A stretch of 32,000 nt of DNA from Thermoproteus tenax Kra 1 (GTDB taxonomy: Archaea; Thermoproteota; Thermoprotei; Thermoproteales; Thermoproteaceae). The stretch covers positions 1,809,543-1,841,542 of the forward strand of contig NC_016070.1 of NCBI RefSeq assembly GCF_000253055.1, written 5' to 3'. The notes beneath the pieces were generated by a model. That model did not search any database. It was not told where the DNA came from and saw nothing but the letters and a program-made list of their open reading frames with translations. Shown in pieces: positions 3,128 through 32,000 of this stretch. Position 1 is the first letter of the stretch; the number at the start of each line of letters is the position of its first letter. Made by a program: the position numbers and the translations under genes.

Positions 3128-3848
3128 CAGATTAACTCCGGCGCAGAGGCTGGTGCTCTACTACATGGCCTTCGAGGCGTTGTACAACGGAAGAGTCTGG
3201 CTGACTTTCGACGATATCAAGCAGGGCACTGGGCTGTCAGCGCGGGCTCTGAGGAGCGCGTTAGTCAAACTCAGGGAGATGGGCTATATAAACAGCGTTA
3301 TCGATCCCCTCAGAGGAAGGAGGCACCTCCACAAAGTACTCCTAGATAGGCTGTATCCCATGCCTGAGCTCAAAGGAGTTTTCTTGATAGACGGCAGCGC
3401 GGATCTGACGCCGGAGGCCATAAAAATTTTGTCGAACGCGGACATTGTCTTATACACAGACTCAGTGGATCCGAAAAGGTTGGAGGGATACGCTAGAGCG
3501 CTGAAGCGGTTCGACGGCAGAGTGCCCGAGGCCGGCCTAGTCGCCATAGTCTTCAATCCGTTGTTAGACCTCGAGCGGCTCCGCGACGTTGTCGGTAGGG
3601 CTAGGTACATATGTGCCTCCAATTCGGTCGACAAAGCTCTAGGCTCATGTTTGGCTTGCGGCATCGTCGACGTTGACTACGGGAAGTTTAGAATTAAGAC
3701 GATCGCCGACGAGAGGGAACTAGACGAGTTGGTCAAACGCTACGACGTAAGAGGCACTATCATGCTGCAGACGTGCGACGGAAAGAGGTACGAGCTTGTG
3801 GTTCTCTCAAGGCGCGATAAAGCGGCCGGAGCTCCACCTCGGAGTTAA
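3117..3848 (+). CDS. Hypothetical protein: N-terminal winged-helix domain plus C-terminal domain of unknown function
   Basis: It overlaps the ThiF-like gene by 11 nt, so the two are probably translationally coupled. A wHTH-like segment is present ([25 protein letters not shown]). The segment [28 protein letters not shown] loosely resembles the N-terminal motif of tetrapyrrole-type methylases but lacks the glycine-rich loop. Confidence 0.5.
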
Positions 3849-3851
3849 AAG

Positions 3852-3861
3852 AATTTAAAAA
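3852..3861 (+). promoter_or_regulatory. TATA box for aIF5A
   Basis: AATTTAAAAA is centred about 24 nt upstream of the ATG at 3881, consistent with a leaderless transcript. Confidence 0.5.
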
Positions 3862-3880
3862 CCGGGTTGTCTCCCTCCCT

Positions 3881-4279
3881 ATGAGCACGAAGTATGTAGA
3901 GGTGGGCGATCTCAAGGAGGGATCCTACATAGTCATCGACGGCGAGCCCTGTAGAGTCGTTGAGATAGAGAAGTCGAAGACGGGTAAACACGGCTCTGCT
4001 AAAGCCCGAGTAGTCGCCGTGGGGCTCTTCGATAACGTGAAGAGGACTCTCAGCGTCCCTGTGGATACACAAGTCGAGGTGCCGATAATAGAGAAGTTCA
4101 CAGCCCAAGTCCTCGCTATATCTGGCGATGTGATACAACTCATGGATATGCGCGACTACAAGACGTTCGAGGTTCCGATGAAATACGTTGAGGACGAGGC
4201 CAAGGGCAAATTGACCGCCGGGGTCGAAGTGGAGGTCTGGCAGATATTGGACCGGTATAAGATAACGAGGGTCAAATAG
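3881..4279 (+). CDS. eif5a: Translation initiation factor 5A (aIF5A)
   Basis: Hypusine-site motif [14 protein letters not shown], 132 aa, OB-fold C-terminal half. Confidence 0.95.
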
Positions 4280-24289: not shown

Positions 24290-25162
24290 TTAAGAATTAG
24301 CCGGCTGGAGGACGATCTCTCTGCTTTTGCCGACGATTAGATCGATATATATCTCCGCCGCGTTGATTAAGTAGTCGATTATTCTATCCGCATGCAACAT
24401 CGTGAGCTCATCCTCAGCGTACTGTCTGAGCACAAAGCGCATTTTGTTCAAAGAATCTATTAAGTCGAAGACTGCCGCCAGATCGCCAGTCGAGGACTTA
24501 CGAGAGAACTCATCTACGGCGCCTTTGAGGGCTCCGACGAGCTCCCTCTTTGGCTCCAAGGCCGCCAACTCGACCAAATGGTCGGCCGCTCTCTCTATAT
24601 AGCGGGCCAGCTGGACGTGTCTGACGCACGAACCTGTGGGATATTTGTAGCAGAGTCTCTCTATCATGTGCCTATATCTGTCTACCTCGTCGTCCACGCT
24701 TTCCATGAGGGCAGGATCGGCCTTGGGCGCAGTCATGACGTGGTCCATCATAAAGGACAGTGTTGAGATCATCCTTGCTATGAGCTTCTCTCTATCTATC
24801 TTGACGTCTTCAACTCTGAATACTATGTAGTCGGGCCCCTCCTCCACAGGTAGCATATAGAGCCCTCTGGCCGACGACATTATCTTATGTCTAAACTGCA
24901 AATCCATGCCCTTTACCTCGAGCTTCACCTCGTCGTACCCGGTCACGAGCGCGGCTACGAGCAATTTAACCACTGTATCTTGCCTAGGCTCAGACACCTT
25001 GATGGCCACGGCCCTCATATGTGCCGGCTTGATGGCCACTACGTCCTCCTCCCATATCACGCTAACTTCGCTCCTCTCGTTGACTGAGTTCCTCTCGCAC
25101 CAAGGCTTGGGGAGAAAGACTGCGTAGGACTCCCTTATTTTGAATATCTTCCTAGTCTCCAC
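24290..25162 (-). CDS. AbrB/SpoVT-like N-terminal domain plus PhoU-like helical domain regulator
   Basis: The N-terminus (IFKIRESYAVFLPKPWCE...VSVIWEEDVVAIKP) resembles the AbrB swapped-hairpin. The rest is helical repeats with D/E-x-x-D pairs, as in PhoU. Confidence 0.55.
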   Translation of the reverse strand: METRKIFKIRESYAVFLPKPWCERNSVNERSEVSVIWEEDVVAIKPAHMRAVAIKVSEPRQDTVVKLLVAALVTGYDEVKLEVKGMDLQFRHKIMSSARGLYMLPVEEGPDYIVFRVEDVKIDREKLIARMISTLSFMMDHVMTAPKADPALMESVDDEVDRYRHMIERLCYKYPTGSCVRHVQLARYIERAADHLVELAALEPKRELVGALKGAVDEFSRKSSTGDLAAVFDLIDSLNKMRFVLRQYAEDELTMLHADRIIDYLINAAEIYIDLIVGKSREIVLQPANS

Positions 25163-25191
25163 AAGCTTGTTTAAATTAACTTAATATAGTT

Positions 25192-25566
25192 TTAACTTCG
25201 ATTGGTGAGGGCGTTTATGAGCATTCTGAGGGCCAAGTGCGTTCTCTCAACGCTTTTCTCAATGGACGCAATAACCTCTAGCTCGAGCGGCGTTTTTGCC
25301 GCGTTTCTCAATGAGCGTATCATGCTTAAATGGGCCTCATAGTGTTTACACATCTCGTTGAGCCTCTCAACTACGTCGGTCTCCTCGCGGGGGCCCTCAA
25401 TGGGCGGCAGATCTTTGACGTTCAATATCTCGAGGAGGCGGAGCCTCAAATAGGTCTCGCGAATTGCGCTGTCAATAAATTCCGATAGATATTCGTCCTT
25501 TATGGAGCCCCTTAGCCTGAGCAGCTCCGATATGTGATCCATCTCATCCCTAATTATCTGCTCCAT
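25192..25566 (-). CDS. Hypothetical helical protein (internal start preferred)
   Basis: The listed ORF start at 25746 would overlap the divergent CBS gene by ~100 nt. The ATG at 25566 has an AT-rich box (25584-25594) ~23 nt upstream. Confidence 0.45.
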   Translation of the reverse strand: MEQIIRDEMDHISELLRLRGSIKDEYLSEFIDSAIRETYLRLRLLEILNVKDLPPIEGPREETDVVERLNEMCKHYEAHLSMIRSLRNAAKTPLELEVIASIEKSVERTHLALRMLINALTNRS

Positions 25567-25651
25567 AGCTATCCTGAGTTGCACATTAAAATTGTTTTGC
25601 AATGTTCTATAATTACTAAAAAAAGATAAAAGTCTCCTCTCACTATTGGGT

Positions 25652-26080
25652 ATGTCGGTCGCCCAGTTCGCTTCTACGGACGTGGTAAAAACTACGCCCA
25701 ACTTGTCCATACGCGATGCCGCGAAGTTGATGAGGAAGCATAACATAGGCCTCCTCGTGTTGGTGGATCACAGCGATCCCTATAAGGTCGTCGGCGTAGT
25801 CTCGGAGAGGGACATTGTCCACGCTATAGCAGAGGGGATTGACCCAGAGAGGCCCGTCGAGGCGATTGCCACGAAAAGCGTGATCACCGTGGAGGCGGAG
25901 GACCCACTGAGCAAGGCGGCCGAGTTGATGAGGAGACACAACATAAGGCATCTGGTGGTAGTTAAAGACGGCAGACTATACGGCGTGTTGTCGATAAAGG
26001 ACTTAGTCTACGAGGAGAATGCGCTTAAGGCTATATCGGGCTACGAGGAGTGGACTTTCGAGAGAGGGATGAGTGCGTGA
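25652..26080 (+). CDS. CBS-pair domain protein
   Basis: Two CBS motifs (HNIGLLVLVD...VVGVVSERDIV; HNIRHLVVVKDGRLYGVLSIKDLV). The ATG at 25652 has a TATA box at 25615-25632. Confidence 0.8.
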   Translation: MSVAQFASTDVVKTTPNLSIRDAAKLMRKHNIGLLVLVDHSDPYKVVGVVSERDIVHAIAEGIDPERPVEAIATKSVITVEAEDPLSKAAELMRRHNIRHLVVVKDGRLYGVLSIKDLVYEENALKAISGYEEWTFERGMSA

Positions 26081-26083
26081 AAT

Positions 26084-26260
26084 GCCCCCTTAGCGGCGCC
26101 CGGCCCTCTCCCGGGGGCCGGGGCCCGCCCCGGAGCCGCCTTTCGGCAACCCCAGGGCGAGGGGGACGCGACCGTGCCCCGGCGCACGGGCGCGACGTTC
26201 GGCCGCGTCCCCAGAGCCGGGAATGTGGTTCATGCGAGAGGAAAACTTACGAGGTTAAAA
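26084..26260 (-). ncRNA. Candidate TnpB guide-scaffold RNA (omega/reRNA) and right end of the IS element
   Basis: A very GC-rich, stem-dense stretch lies immediately 3' of, and overlapping, the tnpB stop codon (26247-26249). Stems visible by eye are:
- 26162-26170 with 26204-26212 (9 bp);
- 26172-26177 with 26184-26189 (6 bp);
- 26101-26106 with 26115-26120 (6 bp);
- 26246-26250 with 26261-26265 (5 bp).
It has no credible ORF. Boundaries are approximate. Confidence 0.5.
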
Positions 26261-27503
26261 GTAAGATGGCCGCCGGGACGGAGGAAAAAGCGGGTTGTTT
26301 TATCTTTTCTATCAATTCCCAGTACCTCCTCTTGGCCCACAACAACGGGATGTTGTCGCGCGCATCGCTGAAGCCACAGACGGGACAGCGCATTATACGT
26401 TTCTTCTCCTCCTCCATTTTCGCACCACAGTGGGGGCATACAGTTGAGTATAGTCGCTCTTCAAGGTACGGTAGCCCATACCACTCTGCCAAGTGTTGTA
26501 GGCGCCTCCTCAGCCGGCCGAGACCGTCGTAGAGGTGCTTCTTGTCGCCTTTCTCGCCGCTCTGTTTCCGCTCTAGATACGTCTCGTAGTCCATCACGTC
26601 TACTACAATGGCGGCGTTGTTCTGTCTGGCGAGCTCGATTATCTCCTTTGCGATCCGTGTCACGACGTCGCGGATTTTCCTAAACCGCTTGGACTTGAGA
26701 CGACGGACCCTCTCCTCAAGGAGCATCCTTCTGGCGGGATCCGCCTCCCTCGCGGCCCGTTCCTCGAGGCGGCTTATCTCCTCGTGGAGTCTCCTCAACT
26801 CCCTAATTACACCATCTTCAGGGAGTCTCAACGTCCTTCTCAACTTACCATCCCTTATAATGCCTATCACGGCCCCGTTATCGAGACGGTTCACGTCAAC
26901 AGCGACGAGCGTCCTGGGCTCCACCGGCGTCACCTCTCTGGCGAAGACAAGCGCTACGTAGAGCTTTCCGTAGGTCGGCTCCTTTCCCCTACGTCTTTCT
27001 ATGCCCAAAAACGCCAACTTGAGTCTGGCGCCCTCCTCAAGTCTCTTTTTGATCCAAGTGACGTTGTTGCGCCCCAATCTAACGACGAAGGTCTTTAGTC
27101 TCCGCACCTTGAGGATCTCGCTTCTGAGATCAATAAAGATAGGAGCACCAAAATCTCTTTCGTTTTCCACTCTTAGTTGAGCCTTTAATGGAACCATCTT
27201 GAAGAATACGATATCGTGCCAGAACACCTTGGCTTGGTCTATGAAGTACTTCTTGAGGTTATACTTGGGAAACACCTCCTCGATTATTTTATGCGCCAGC
27301 TCCCGCCTGTCGGGAGTGAGAAGTCTGCCCAGCTCCTCCGGCGTCAGTTTCGGCTCCTCTTGTCCTGTGATTTCTTTGAGCAACCTTCTGACATACTCTT
27401 CTGTGGCCAGATGTATGCGCGTCACTAGATCCAGAACGTCTGGCCGCTCCTCGACGAGACGCCAGGGAATTTCGATCTTCAGCACTCTATAGACCTGGCC
27501 CAT
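26247..27503 (-). CDS. tnpB: TnpB (IS200/IS605-family OrfB, RuvC-like RNA-guided nuclease family)
   Basis: RuvC-I-like VAVDVN. C-terminal zinc finger CPHCG-x14-CPVCG followed by DARDN (RuvC-III-like). The usual RuvC-II Glu position reads IVVDVMDYE. The ATG at 27503 (MGQVYRVLKIEIPW) is preferred; the listed 35-codon extension covers the structured 5' module. Confidence 0.8.
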   Translation of the reverse strand: MGQVYRVLKIEIPWRLVEERPDVLDLVTRIHLATEEYVRRLLKEITGQEEPKLTPEELGRLLTPDRRELAHKIIEEVFPKYNLKKYFIDQAKVFWHDIVFFKMVPLKAQLRVENERDFGAPIFIDLRSEILKVRRLKTFVVRLGRNNVTWIKKRLEEGARLKLAFLGIERRRGKEPTYGKLYVALVFAREVTPVEPRTLVAVDVNRLDNGAVIGIIRDGKLRRTLRLPEDGVIRELRRLHEEISRLEERAAREADPARRMLLEERVRRLKSKRFRKIRDVVTRIAKEIIELARQNNAAIVVDVMDYETYLERKQSGEKGDKKHLYDGLGRLRRRLQHLAEWYGLPYLEERLYSTVCPHCGAKMEEEKKRIMRCPVCGFSDARDNIPLLWAKRRYWELIEKIKQPAFSSVPAAILLLTS

Positions 27504-27565: not shown

Positions 27566-27598
27566 CACCTGACTTACGGCGCCGCTGTAAGTCAGGTG
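27566..27598. repeat. Perfect 12-bp hairpin (subterminal palindrome)
   Basis: CACCTGACTTAC - GGCGCCGCT - GTAAGTCAGGTG. Related copies occur at 31843-31877 and, degenerate, at 31772-31802. Confidence 0.9.
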
Positions 27599-27600
27599 AA

Positions 27601-27629
27601 CGTTTCAATTACTCTGGGATTTCTACTCC
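27601..27629 (-). repeat. CRISPR-repeat-like motif at the element terminus
   Basis: The minus strand reads GGAGTAGAAATCCCAGAGTAATTGAAACG. Its 3' end ATTGAAAC resembles the 8-nt crRNA 5' tag of crenarchaeal type I/III repeats. Related copies lie at 31744-31768 (plus) and 31810-31834 (inverted). Confidence 0.5.
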
Positions 27630-27993
27630 TTCGACTTACCAACCGGCCCACGTCGCCGGCCGCCTCAGCAATGGGCGCAACCTCCTCCAGAAGCGCCTCC
27701 GGCGCGTCTCCTCGATGTATGCTAACACTGAGAGGAGGGAAAGCAGATACACGACCATGAGCTAGAGAGACCAGAACATAAAAAACGAGACGTTTCACAT
27801 CAGTTCAACTTTATAACGCTTCTCGCGAGCCCGACCGTCCGTCGAACAGTCGTTGACGATGAGGACCTCTTTGATCCCGACGGCAGAAGAGCTCGGGCAT
27901 GTTCTCAGCCTCGTTGAGAGTGGGGACTATGATCGACACGTAGCCCCAAGGATGAATGAGAAAAAATGGATGATGAAAAAGATTCTGTTTCAA
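27630..27993 (-). pseudogene. Family-2 glycosyltransferase fragment, frameshifted and truncated
   Basis: VSIIVPTLNEAENMPELF is the GT2 N-terminal motif. After ELF the homologous continuation (AVGIKEVLIVNDCSTDG) is in another frame and stops at KVELM. A third frame carries further GT2-like sequence (GDAPEALLEEV...GDVGRLVSR), which ends where the IS-end motif begins. Confidence 0.65.
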
Positions 27994-27996
27994 AAA

Positions 27997-28377
27997 CTAT
28001 TTGGCCGCGAAGACGAGCAACGAGCTCCCCATCGGCTCGACCACACAGTTCCCCACTAGGTACATCTGCCCGTTCTGCAACGGCACCATGGCCGCGTTCA
28101 TATATCCGTATTCATCATCGCCTCCCGAGGACATGCTACTGTAGCTCGACATAGAGACGCCGCTTCCGCCCGAGAGCTTGACGGCGGAGATGTAGTATTT
28201 GCCATTATTCTGATATATAGGCAGATTCGCACACTGCTGGGCTATTGCCACCTCCCGTGTGCCATATTCCGCTGTGTTCTGCTGCGCTTGTTGCATCATG
28301 GCGCCTGTCGTGTATATAGTGACGATTATGACCATGGCCATTGCTATTATCAGTGCTGCTGTCACCGCCCAGTACAT
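27997..28377 (-). CDS. Small secreted/membrane-anchored hypothetical protein
   Basis: N-terminal TM helix (AVTAALIIAMAMVIIVTIY), then a Q-, S- and G-rich extracellular part. Confidence 0.5.
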   Translation of the reverse strand: MYWAVTAALIIAMAMVIIVTIYTTGAMMQQAQQNTAEYGTREVAIAQQCANLPIYQNNGKYYISAVKLSGGSGVSMSSYSSMSSGGDDEYGYMNAAMVPLQNGQMYLVGNCVVEPMGSSLLVFAAK

Positions 28378-28404: not shown

Positions 28405-28839
28405 TTAGAGGTATTGTCTGGTGGCGTACCAGGCCAGAACCGATGACGGTATAGAGAGCGCGAACAAATATCTATTGACGACCGCAAGGAACAACCATAT
28501 GATCAGCGAAACGGCGTAGAGGGCGGCCGAGACCGCCAGCATCCACGACCGCTCCCGCCATGCGAGATAGGCGGTGAAGCCCACGAGCGGGGCGGCGTAT
28601 GCGGCTACAAACAACGCCAATGCGACCGCGGGCACCGAATAGCCCGCCCCTAGGAGCACAAAGAAGAGTACCGCCGTGATTACGGCGATCCGCTCCCTCG
28701 ACTCGAACGCGATTAGGACTATTCCAGCGAACTGAAGACCAAAGGAGACAGTGCCGAGCGCGAGGTTTAGACCATGAACAGGGATCCATCTGACTGCCAA
28801 CAACGCGCTTGCTATTGCGATGAGCAGATAGCCCAACAT
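28405..28839 (-). CDS. Polytopic membrane protein (about 5 TM), hypothetical
   Basis: The internal ATG at 28839 (MLGYLLIAIASALL) is preferred because the listed start at 28947 would overlap the upstream gene by 82 nt. The protein is hydrophobic throughout. Confidence 0.5.
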   Translation of the reverse strand: MLGYLLIAIASALLAVRWIPVHGLNLALGTVSFGLQFAGIVLIAFESRERIAVITAVLFFVLLGAGYSVPAVALALFVAAYAAPLVGFTAYLAWRERSWMLAVSAALYAVSLIIWLFLAVVNRYLFALSIPSSVLAWYATRQYL

Positions 28840-28865
28840 GACAAGAGGTTCGTGGGGACGAAAAG

Positions 28866-29936
28866 CTAGCTGACCTCGATTGTATAGGTGTCCAGGGGAC
28901 ACTCCTCTCTCTCGGAGCTCTCCCTCTCTCCCGGCCTCGGCTCCCATATAATGTTCTTTTCGTAGTAGCCCAATATGACGAAGGTGTAGAGGCCGGGCCT
29001 CTGCGCTTTGAACGGCACGTCGACGTCGATGAGCCAGAAGGCCCCGTTCTTCCCCTCAGGATAGATCGTAAACGTCGCAATCGGCGTGCCCCAATCGTAG
29101 TGGTGTAATTTCACGTAGCTGCTGTTGGGCGCGTAGTAGAATACAACGACATAGTAGGTGGATCCAAAGGTGTCGTTGACGTAGCCCTCGGCGGTGAAGC
29201 GGCTTCCGTTGTAGGTCGGCGGCTTTATCCAGCGGACCCATTTGGACACCATGTAGATCGTCAGAAAGACCTTCGAGCTGTTGTACGCAAGGCCGATGGA
29301 GACGTAGTTGTTGCAGGGGTTCAACAGGGAGATACGGTGCCCCCAATGTGATCCAGAGTCGTTGTAGACCATCGCGTTTATCGCCCAACTGATGAAGCCC
29401 GTGACGTTGATGTGGCATCCGTAACGTTGGAGGAGATAGATGGATCCCCCGCATCCCATCGCGGCAATGTTTTCCCCTACGGCGTACTTTCCGCCGTCAA
29501 GCAATGTGTAGTAGTAGGTGGGCTCTCTGCCCTCTGCGTCGTAGTGGCTGTATATGCCGGTCTTCAACATATACTCGGCGCGGAACTGCGGAGTCTTCAG
29601 AGGCATCCACTGGACGGGCGGGACGCCCTCCCTCTCCCTGACCTCGTTGAGGTAGTCCAGGGCGAACTTCTGTAACGGAGTGAGGGTCACGTTGTAGGTC
29701 TCCTCGGGAGGCACGGGCGGCAGAGTACGGATGTGAATGGACGAAAGAGTGGCGTTGAGGTACGTGAAGAGGCGTTGGAGCGCGCTCTGGACTGCCCCCT
29801 CCAGTTGGGTTGCGTTGACGCGGATCGCGTTAAGCCCCTCCTGGGCGACCTCCCAGGCTGTGTGCAACGCCGGCCTTGCGTAGAGGAGGAGAAGGACGGC
29901 GAGTAAGGCCGTGAGGGCCAACGCGAGCCGTCTCAC
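28866..29936 (-). CDS. Secreted CAP/SCP (PR-1-like) domain protein with extra C-terminal beta-rich domain
   Basis: Signal/anchor MRRLALALTALLAVLLLLY. CAP-like pattern LDYLNEVREREGVPPVQW...YSHY...GENIA...WGHRISLLNP...VSIGLAY. TATA box at 29955-29964, ~24 nt upstream of the GTG start. Confidence 0.6.
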   Translation of the reverse strand: MRRLALALTALLAVLLLLYARPALHTAWEVAQEGLNAIRVNATQLEGAVQSALQRLFTYLNATLSSIHIRTLPPVPPEETYNVTLTPLQKFALDYLNEVREREGVPPVQWMPLKTPQFRAEYMLKTGIYSHYDAEGREPTYYYTLLDGGKYAVGENIAAMGCGGSIYLLQRYGCHINVTGFISWAINAMVYNDSGSHWGHRISLLNPCNNYVSIGLAYNSSKVFLTIYMVSKWVRWIKPPTYNGSRFTAEGYVNDTFGSTYYVVVFYYAPNSSYVKLHHYDWGTPIATFTIYPEGKNGAFWLIDVDVPFKAQRPGLYTFVILGYYEKNIIWEPRPGERESSEREECPLDTYTIEVS

Positions 29937-31743: not shown

Positions 31744-31895
31744 CGGAAATTTCCTTGGAGAGTTGAAACGTTCACCTGACTTTCAGCGATGCGTAAAAGT
31801 CAGATTAACGATTCAACTCCTTGGGATTTCTACTCTAACGACACACCTGACTTTCGGGCGCCGCCGTAAGTCAGGTGAGGCGTGGGAGTTGAAAG
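31744..31895 (+). repeat. Hairpin-rich 5' module of the second tnpB element
   Basis: In order, the module contains:
- GGAAATTTCCTTGGAGAGTTGAAAC (31744-31768);
- a degenerate hairpin (31775-31782 with 31795-31802);
- an inverted repeat-like copy ATTCAACTCCTTGGGATTTCTACTC (31810-31834);
- a hairpin (31843-31877);
- GGAGTTGAAAG (31885-31895).
It is homologous to 27534-27629 read on the minus strand. Confidence 0.8.
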
Positions 31896-31960
31896 TGTAT
31901 CTCCTTAACCAGCTTTTCTTTTCCCGCGCTATATATGTTTATAAGCTAAGTCTATGGGCA

Positions 31961-32000
31961 TTGAAGATGTTAATCCCGTGGCATCTTGTGGAGGAGCGCC
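31961..32000 (+). CDS. tnpB: Second TnpB paralogue, N-terminal fragment (runs off the window)
   Basis: The frame reads (L)KMLIPWHLVEER, matching VLKIEIPWRLVEER at the start of the first TnpB. Nucleotide homology also extends upstream. The start codon is uncertain (TTG at 31961 or ATG at 31967). Confidence 0.6.
   Translation, partial: MKMLIPWHLVEER

Follow-up and report, generated by a model that had tools for sequence, protein, structure and literature searches.

A candidate TnpB guide-RNA scaffold lies behind a stand-alone tnpB gene of Thermoproteus tenax Kra 1 and is kept with its Pyrobaculum relatives

We propose that an extremely GC-rich block lying directly after the stop codon of a tnpB gene in Thermoproteus tenax Kra 1 is the gene for a TnpB guide-RNA (omega RNA, or reRNA) scaffold, and we would put the probability of this reading at roughly 85%. 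The block was first picked out as such a candidate in a preliminary description of the window, by which we mean the whole 32-kb stretch of DNA that was analysed, and that claim is now supported by the position of the block, its strand, conservation, covariation and right end, and by the TnpB/Cas12f fold of the neighbouring protein. A guide-RNA scaffold at the 3' end of tnpB is what established TnpB biology leads one to expect, and for TnpB biology in general the result is a confirmation and not a surprise; what our analysis adds, for a TnpB family of hyperthermophiles, is a scaffold model supported by covariation, a right end placed to the base and a candidate for the guide. This candidate guide-RNA family is new to Rfam and to the literature searched, in which we found no paper on TnpB RNAs of Pyrobaculum or Thermoproteus, and the earlier guess that the structure might be undescribed was in this sense a good one. 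The locus is laid out as follows:

25646-26080, plus strand: CBS-domain gene, intact; the element sits 2 nt past its stop codon
26083-26246, minus strand: candidate omega/reRNA scaffold, filling the stretch between the tnpB stop and the right end of the transposon
26247-27503, minus strand: tnpB, intact, 418 aa, with its ATG at residue 36 of a 453-aa open reading frame

The stop codons of the CBS gene (26078-26080, plus strand) and of tnpB (26247-26249, minus strand) are located where the preliminary description had put them, with 166 nt between them, and the block described there as GC-rich and dense in stems is indeed present, only its start has to be moved from 26084 to 26083, one base to the left. 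On the tnpB strand 26083-26246 is 80% G+C against 54 +/- 5% window-wide. Over 26084-26230 the G+C fraction is 0.803 against a window mean of 0.539 (sd 0.054, 147-nt windows; z = 4.85), the highest value outside the block in windows of this size being 0.721, within a long ORF; in 100-nt windows the peak, 83%, falls between the CBS and tnpB stops. As to the stems, 26162-26170 (GGGGACGCG) is the exact reverse complement of 26204-26212 (CGCGTCCCC), and 26172-26177 (CCGTGC) that of 26184-26189 (GCACGG). The minus (tnpB) strand folds at -118 kcal/mol, with z = -3.36 against shuffles (2 of 200 shuffles did as well), and the plus strand does not fold better than its shuffles (z = -1.30). This single-sequence score is modest since shuffled sequence of 80% G+C also folds strongly, and the real evidence for structure is comparative and not drawn from the folding of one sequence.

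The partner protein of the block is a TnpB with the Cas12f/TnpB fold, and nuclease activity is predicted for it. The product is 100% identical to a T. tenax protein, its sole Pfam match is the Cas12f1-like TNB domain (1.2e-7), and the profile of its family (27 members), when run against PDB, matched TnpB-like nucleases, Cas12g and ISDra2 TnpB. The best Foldseek matches to its AlphaFold model (pLDDT 84.3, pTM 0.76) are Cas12f, Cas12g, the ISFba1 TnpB-reRNA complex and Fanzor2, at E of about 1e-11. An acidic triad, D203, D302 and D383, is invariant in the 27 family members, and a CxxC...CxxC motif (zinc finger) is present. D203 and D383 occupy canonical RuvC positions, and D302 (codon 26598-26600) aligns with the RuvC-II glutamate of other TnpBs, IVVD being found throughout the family; rearranged catalytic sites in archaeal TnpB clades have been discussed (PMC10691335). 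In a protein search the family members of at least 58% identity were all named from three species, more than 20 from P. islandicum, 3 from P. neutrophilum and 2 from T. tenax. We found no tnpA (Y1 transposase) gene: tnpB is the sole gene from the left-end hairpin to the right end, and no transposase family is among the listed neighbours of eight other copies, which makes the element IS1341-like and non-autonomous. It belongs to a stand-alone IS1341-like tnpB family confined, in the data searched, to Thermoproteus and Pyrobaculum, some members of which carry the annotation PaREP12.

The block accompanies tnpB from copy to copy. Eight close copies with 58-72% protein identity were taken, five from P. 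islandicum (L009, L011, L012, L015, L016) and three from P. neutrophilum (L010, L013, L014), and all eight have a homologous GC-rich block of 165-180 nt right after the stop on the tnpB strand; other tnpB copies devoid of a 3' block, which had been named as a possible observation against the scaffold, did not turn up among them. The block-bearing copies sit in unrelated gene neighbourhoods, and similarity among the nine copies, T. tenax included, breaks sharply after ...GCCGC-AAGGGG(G)C, the flanks beyond being unrelated. With T. tenax as its only input sequence, a covariance model recovered the block on the tnpB strand of all nine copies, the E values lying between 3.8e-51 and 1.6e-7. The elements of the fold, in 5' to 3' order on the tnpB strand, are:

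26213-26221, minus strand: P2 5' arm, CCCGGCUCU, which pairs with 26099-26107 and closes a three-hairpin junction
26162-26212, minus strand: hairpin HA, holding the stems 26162-26170/26204-26212 and 26172-26177/26184-26189
26124-26161, minus strand: hairpin HB, 17 bp with a GAAA loop, kept across the wider family
26108-26123, minus strand: hairpin HC, short, with a loop GCCCCC (26118-26113) complementary to the guide-proximal tail
26099-26107, minus strand: P2 3' arm, AGGGCCGGG
26083-26091, minus strand: 3' tail, AAGGGGGCA, with GGGGGC at 26089-26084; the element ends with base 26083

The same plan, P2 closing three hairpins, is seen in eight of the nine copies when each is folded singly, and in T. 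tenax it lies only 1.1 kcal/mol above the minimum-energy fold of its own sequence. Plain MAFFT alignment followed by RNAalifold gave a poor consensus (-19 kcal/mol), as hairpin lengths differ among the copies, and was replaced by a covariance-model alignment. In the nine-sequence alignment 93.0% of cells are paired, against 44.5-56.6% with slid partners, and there are 29 compensatory pairs against 7-11 in the slid controls; none of 500 shuffles reaches the observed values, which is not to be read as a probability, since the covariance model aligned the sequences to the structure, and these are related and very GC-rich. With distant relatives included (26 sequences) 92.2% of cells are paired against 41-56% slid, and compensatory change is seen in 42 of 56 pairs against 17-22 in slid controls. 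The covariance analysis across tnpB copies that had been suggested as a check on the scaffold therefore comes out at 92-93% paired against 41-57%, the latter a high baseline from which the gap to the observed values is still large, and the exact right end, looked for in the same check, has been defined as well. RNAalifold independently recovers P2, HA, HB and HC, with 22 of 41 pairs compensatory. Compensatory changes touch 16 of the 17 pairs of HB, and the stem of HC covaries through CCCG/CGGG, CUCC/GGAG, CGAG/CUCG and CGCG/CGCG.

HA is specific to the clade of T. tenax, P. islandicum and P. neutrophilum. A scan of genome contigs gave only distant relatives (33-44% identity), none of them from these three species. 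With relatives from one Thermoproteaceae genome bin and from hot-spring metagenome contigs, at 32-44% protein identity, a second covariance model produced matches of 75-105 nt located 100-190 nt past the tnpB stop on the same strand. Their shorter core consists of P2, HB, HC and a tail GAAAGGGGGC, and, as HA is missing from it, we take these parts, about 100 nt together, to be the core of the family.

Next to the guide we propose, from comparison of the sequences, a pseudoknot between the HC loop and the GGGGGC of the tail. Its 6 bp are intact in 27 of 29 elements, as counted by hand and without a tool alignment; independent double compensatory changes occur in two P. islandicum copies, L015 (GCUCCC/GGGAGC) and L016 (GUCCCC/GGGGAC), wobble changes in four elements, and one mismatch each in two. 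An outer helix, P1 (26237-26242 with 26085-26090), is backed by the covariance-model alignments and was not recovered by RNAalifold. We treat it as doubtful, since it lies within a variable spacer and competes for the tail with the better-supported pseudoknot.

The direction of the wobble pairs tells the strand. There are 55 G.U cells against 11 A.C cells, and 93.0% of cells are paired on the tnpB strand against 83.4% on the other, which indicates that the structure belongs to the tnpB strand, as RNA or as single-stranded top-strand DNA. Conservation on the plus strand independent of tnpB, mentioned in the preliminary description as a sign of some unrelated RNA, is the opposite of what these pairs favour.

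The right end could be placed to the base with the help of an empty site. A 1981-nt contig of another strain (L098), whose CBS protein is 98% identical, lacks the element; 1781 nt of it, at 99.4% identity, correspond to window positions 24302-26082, and from 26083 on the two sequences part. The junction on this side is clean, and the empty site sets the right end of the element at 26083, so that the minus strand reads ...AAGGGGGCA|UUUCACGC. From the sequence, the guide would be the flanking DNA from 26082 downward. Guides of other TnpBs are about 16-20 nt long, and with this length assumed the element end at 26083 gives:

26063-26082, minus strand: candidate guide, UUUCACGCACUCAUCCCUCU, antisense to the last CBS codons and stop

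The guide had been expected to come from the 3' end of the CBS gene, and this agrees with a block that stops exactly at the right end and has the CBS 3' end as its flank. In L098 the empty site reads 5'-...GCUAUGCAGAC|UUUCACGC, and this one site suggests a TAM ending ...CAGAC. In other copies RRAC closes the left flank ahead of the left-end hairpin module, and homology apparently continues outward. Two further observations concern the insertion sites. In L098 an ORF follows the CBS gene (1775-1981), its GTG start overlapping the CBS stop (GTGA), and the Kra 1 element (26081-26083) sits after the second codon of that ORF; this partial ORF had no match in Pfam. In the P. islandicum copy L012 the right end is immediately followed by the start codon (ATG) of a radical SAM gene (3433-3437), which a candidate guide would therefore cover.

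A homing model is established for bacterial IS200/IS605 elements, and it would be logical to suggest the same for the T. tenax element, for which we infer transcription, RNA ends, TnpB binding, TAM and cleavage. An RNA of the tnpB strand, made through or from the end of tnpB, would run across the right end into the flank, and about 165 nt of it would fold with P2 closing HA, HB and HC, the GGGGGC just before the guide pairing with the HC loop into the pseudoknot. TnpB would bind this scaffold and use the next 16-20 nt (UUUCACGCACUCAUCC...) as guide. Excision would restore an empty site in which the guide sequence stands beside the motif formerly left of the element; this site would be cut, and its repair from the sister copy would bring the element back.

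One could also take the block for a structured 3' UTR that stabilises the tnpB mRNA, or terminates it, at high temperature and has no part in guiding, for it follows the stop directly on the coding strand and reaches -106 kcal/mol for 167 nt. A stabiliser, however, needs no exact end at the transposon boundary, and in 29 elements an invariant tail and the pseudoknot abut the flank; the multi-helix architecture is kept at 32-44% protein identity, and no run of T is present after the block. We consider a UTR function of this kind quite improbable as the whole explanation.

It has also to be asked whether the T. tenax copy is a relic, immobilised, with its RNA unused or serving elsewhere, for instance in RNA-guided binding near the CBS gene. 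Such a suspicion comes in part from the other side of the element, where one feature is common to other copies:

27566-27598, minus strand: left-end subterminal hairpin, CACCUGACUUAC ... GUAAGUCAGGUG

The left end of the T. tenax copy nevertheless differs from those of other copies, and the continuation of L098 (GTCTGCATAGCCACTTCGAAC), which is the left flank to be expected, was not found in the 32-kb window by pattern search, blastn or tblastn. These two facts together indicate that the left side, in the region 27600-27760, has been rearranged or deleted, and the Kra 1 copy may no longer be mobile. One could add that in the protein search only two full-length family proteins named T. tenax stand against more than 20 of P. 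islandicum, and that RuvC-II has D in place of E. Yet tnpB is full length with all family-invariant residues present, the scaffold scores full-length with every helix intact, and the E-to-D change, being family-wide, is no sign of decay in this copy, all of which makes a relic a very unlikely account of the block. The left-end region itself is modular (27566-27660 in the window, upstream of tnpB in L009-L016), with a long palindrome CACCUG...CAGGUG and two flanking modules, whose order and orientation relative to tnpB vary among copies, as if the palindrome promoted inversions. Pfam gave no match for the window ORFs 27997-28377 and 28405-28947, to the right of the element.

Elements of the IS200/IS605 group move as single-stranded DNA and carry subterminal hairpins, and the known right-end recognition hairpins of this family are about 20-30 nt long. 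From that side one might take the block for the single-stranded DNA right end only, its hairpins serving a TnpA-type transposase in trans and having no RNA role. The subterminal hairpin of the left end would be in line with it, as would the strand asymmetry, given that G.T wobble is tolerated in DNA too, but a fold of 165 nt with four helices and a pseudoknot, in which compensatory changes are seen in 42 of 56 pairs, goes far past such recognition hairpins, no tnpA was found in or beside any copy examined, and the guide-proximal pseudoknot matches a conserved feature of TnpB and Cas12 guide RNAs (PMC10097598). An exclusive role as DNA end seems to us highly improbable; the role of DNA end and that of guide RNA are not mutually exclusive. 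In its lack of tnpA the T. tenax element differs from the autonomous, IS605-type members of IS200/IS605. As to the subterminal hairpins and the insertion without target duplication expected in this group, a left-end hairpin conserved among copies and a clean right junction were observed, and the left junction of the T. tenax copy was not found.

That the block is an unrelated ncRNA or small protein gene on either strand, merely neighbouring tnpB, can practically be dismissed, for although long open frames span it on both strands and an ATG (26233-26231) is invariant, the block stands after every close tnpB copy taken, in unrelated neighbourhoods, has no Rfam match up to E 10 and no tRNA, contains no conserved ORF from the invariant ATG and pairs more poorly on the plus strand. 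Rfam 15 at the curated gathering score had no match in the whole window, the best local matches when E up to 10 was allowed having E 1.6-2.9, far under gathering, and a tRNA search found none. A small ORF from the invariant ATG was considered and rejected, its length being 20-58 aa with different frames and different ends among the copies. The ORF at 26050-26532 (160 aa, plus strand, antisense to tnpB), Arg/Pro/Gly-rich over the block, was rightly called an artefact from the beginning: it is an expected by-product of 80% G+C and not a gene. Annotation is to be corrected in the same way wherever ORFs run across such blocks, this one and a P. islandicum dehydrogenase reading into the block being examples. 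The latter, annotated in L009 as a short-chain dehydrogenase gene of 265 aa, ends 4 nt from the tnpB stop, its frame crossing the right end and the entire scaffold on the opposite strand (3743-3920); either an insertion has replaced its C-terminus or this end is an annotation artefact.

A guide-RNA scaffold behind the T. tenax tnpB can be set beside several known systems. In ISDra2 of Deinococcus radiodurans (PMC8612924, PMC10097598) the omega RNA is encoded on the same strand as tnpB and at its 3' end, the scaffold ends at the transposon right end with the flanking DNA as guide, as would be the case in T. tenax, and several stems are combined with a pseudoknot made from bases just 5' of the guide. 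In the ISDra2 omega RNA bases -5 to -3 pair with -103 to -105, a pseudoknot that its authors describe as conserved in every Cas12 guide RNA (PMC10097598). The scaffold core is about 100 nt family-wide here and 116 nt in ISDra2. Unlike ISDra2, the T. tenax scaffold lies almost wholly after the stop codon, is 80% G+C and has the extra clade-specific hairpin HA; its element is without tnpA, the family profile matches ISDra2 TnpB at only E = 1e-3, and Rfam, with or without an omega-RNA model among its families, gave no match to the block. From the usual TnpB the T. tenax family differs by the aspartate in the RuvC-II position.

Closer by habitat is TnpB7 of Sulfolobus islandicus REY15A, whose sense-overlapping reRNA runs from the coding region to the right end and has the flank as guide, with cleavage shown experimentally (PMC11043419). 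It has in common with T. tenax a thermophilic crenarchaeal host, the same-strand 3' position and, as we would expect for T. tenax, the use of the flank as guide. TnpB7 belongs to an IS605-type element whose right end has 38/39 conserved nt, the last of them UUCAC, and whose TAM is TTTAA (PMC11043419), whereas the T. tenax element is stand-alone and its tail is AAGGGGGCA. In S. islandicus a sense-overlapping 3' transcript was found with the IS605-type tnpB and not with the IS1341-type (PMC11043419), which means that a stand-alone archaeal tnpB does not always express such RNA. Sense-overlapping transcripts of an IS1341-type tnpB were detected experimentally in Halobacterium salinarum (PMC4615843), together with circular isoforms (PMC12558985), and the same two papers cite related RNAs from Sulfolobus, Thermococcus and Pyrococcus, with Pyrobaculum and Thermoproteus unmentioned. 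The likeness to Halobacterium consists in a same-strand ncRNA at the 3' end of a stand-alone archaeal tnpB, the T. tenax RNA being a predicted one. The sgRNA (tracrRNA:crRNA) of Cas12f is comparable too: Cas12f complexes are the best structural matches of the predicted TnpB model, and a guide-proximal pseudoknot is common to TnpB and Cas12 guide RNAs (PMC10097598). Unlike with Cas12f, there is no CRISPR array or repeat here, and the guide would be fixed by the insertion site.

The hosts are described as hyperthermophiles in the Pyrobaculum small-RNA paper, and the published P. islandicum small-RNA libraries cover only 16-70 nt, with about 43,000 reads. A scaffold of 80% G+C together with a predicted nuclease of 418 aa may be a possible starting point for heat-stable RNA-guided tools.

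The 5' side of the scaffold allows a more speculative suggestion. Its start may lie further upstream than the base after the stop, within the final tnpB codons, and two possible signals can be read from the sequence there:

26254-26261, minus strand: possible archaeal TATA box, CUUUUAAC, overlapping the last tnpB codons
26227-26234, minus strand: possible transcription start, CAUGAACC, with the invariant AUG

A stretch spanning the last tnpB codons and the stop, CUUUUAACCUCGUAA, is conserved in eight of the nine copies, and the distance from the TATA-like motif to the invariant AUG is fixed, within 1 nt, in eight of nine, the sequence of the spacer varying freely, as would be expected of an archaeal promoter with its start site. 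Synonymous third positions of tnpB are best conserved in the last ~25 codons (0.71-0.83 against mostly 0.45-0.70 elsewhere, where two isolated peaks reach 0.80 and 0.82). The final 15 residues of TnpB are predicted by AlphaFold to be disordered, and conserved synonymous sites in a disordered C-terminus argue for a constraint on the nucleotides themselves in this 3' part of the ORF. Either an archaeal promoter inside the gene or a constraint on the RNA would fit this conservation. We may tentatively suggest, as a possibility which we find rather doubtful at present, that the guide RNA is its own transcription unit and not a processed tail of the tnpB mRNA, and, if this is true, the scaffold lies wholly outside the tnpB ORF.

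Seven metagenomic relatives show another arrangement, in which the scaffold core with its GAAAGGGGGC tail lies upstream of tnpB at a distance of 110-600 nt, on the other strand and directed away from the gene:

L046 803-898, minus strand: inverted scaffold core
L087 79-176, minus strand: inverted scaffold core
L079 136-218, minus strand: inverted scaffold core
L085 117-212, minus strand: inverted scaffold core
L080 930-1004, minus strand: inverted scaffold core
L054 631-729, minus strand: inverted scaffold core
L091 351-448, minus strand: inverted scaffold core

No same-strand scaffold was found downstream of tnpB in these seven. The inverted copy may represent either a guide-RNA gene in divergent orientation or a neighbouring derivative that has no tnpB, and such cores are in line with a separable RNA module. 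Symmetric ends were considered for these distant loci and rejected, as no terminal repeats were found.

The window itself holds a further tnpB-type element at 31763-32000 on the plus strand, in the opposite orientation and running off the window. It has two hairpins resembling those of the left end (31763-31816 and 31840-31880), followed by a tnpB-like frame with ATA for ATG, TAA at codon 3 and a 1-nt deletion, which by its sequence looks like a pseudogene.
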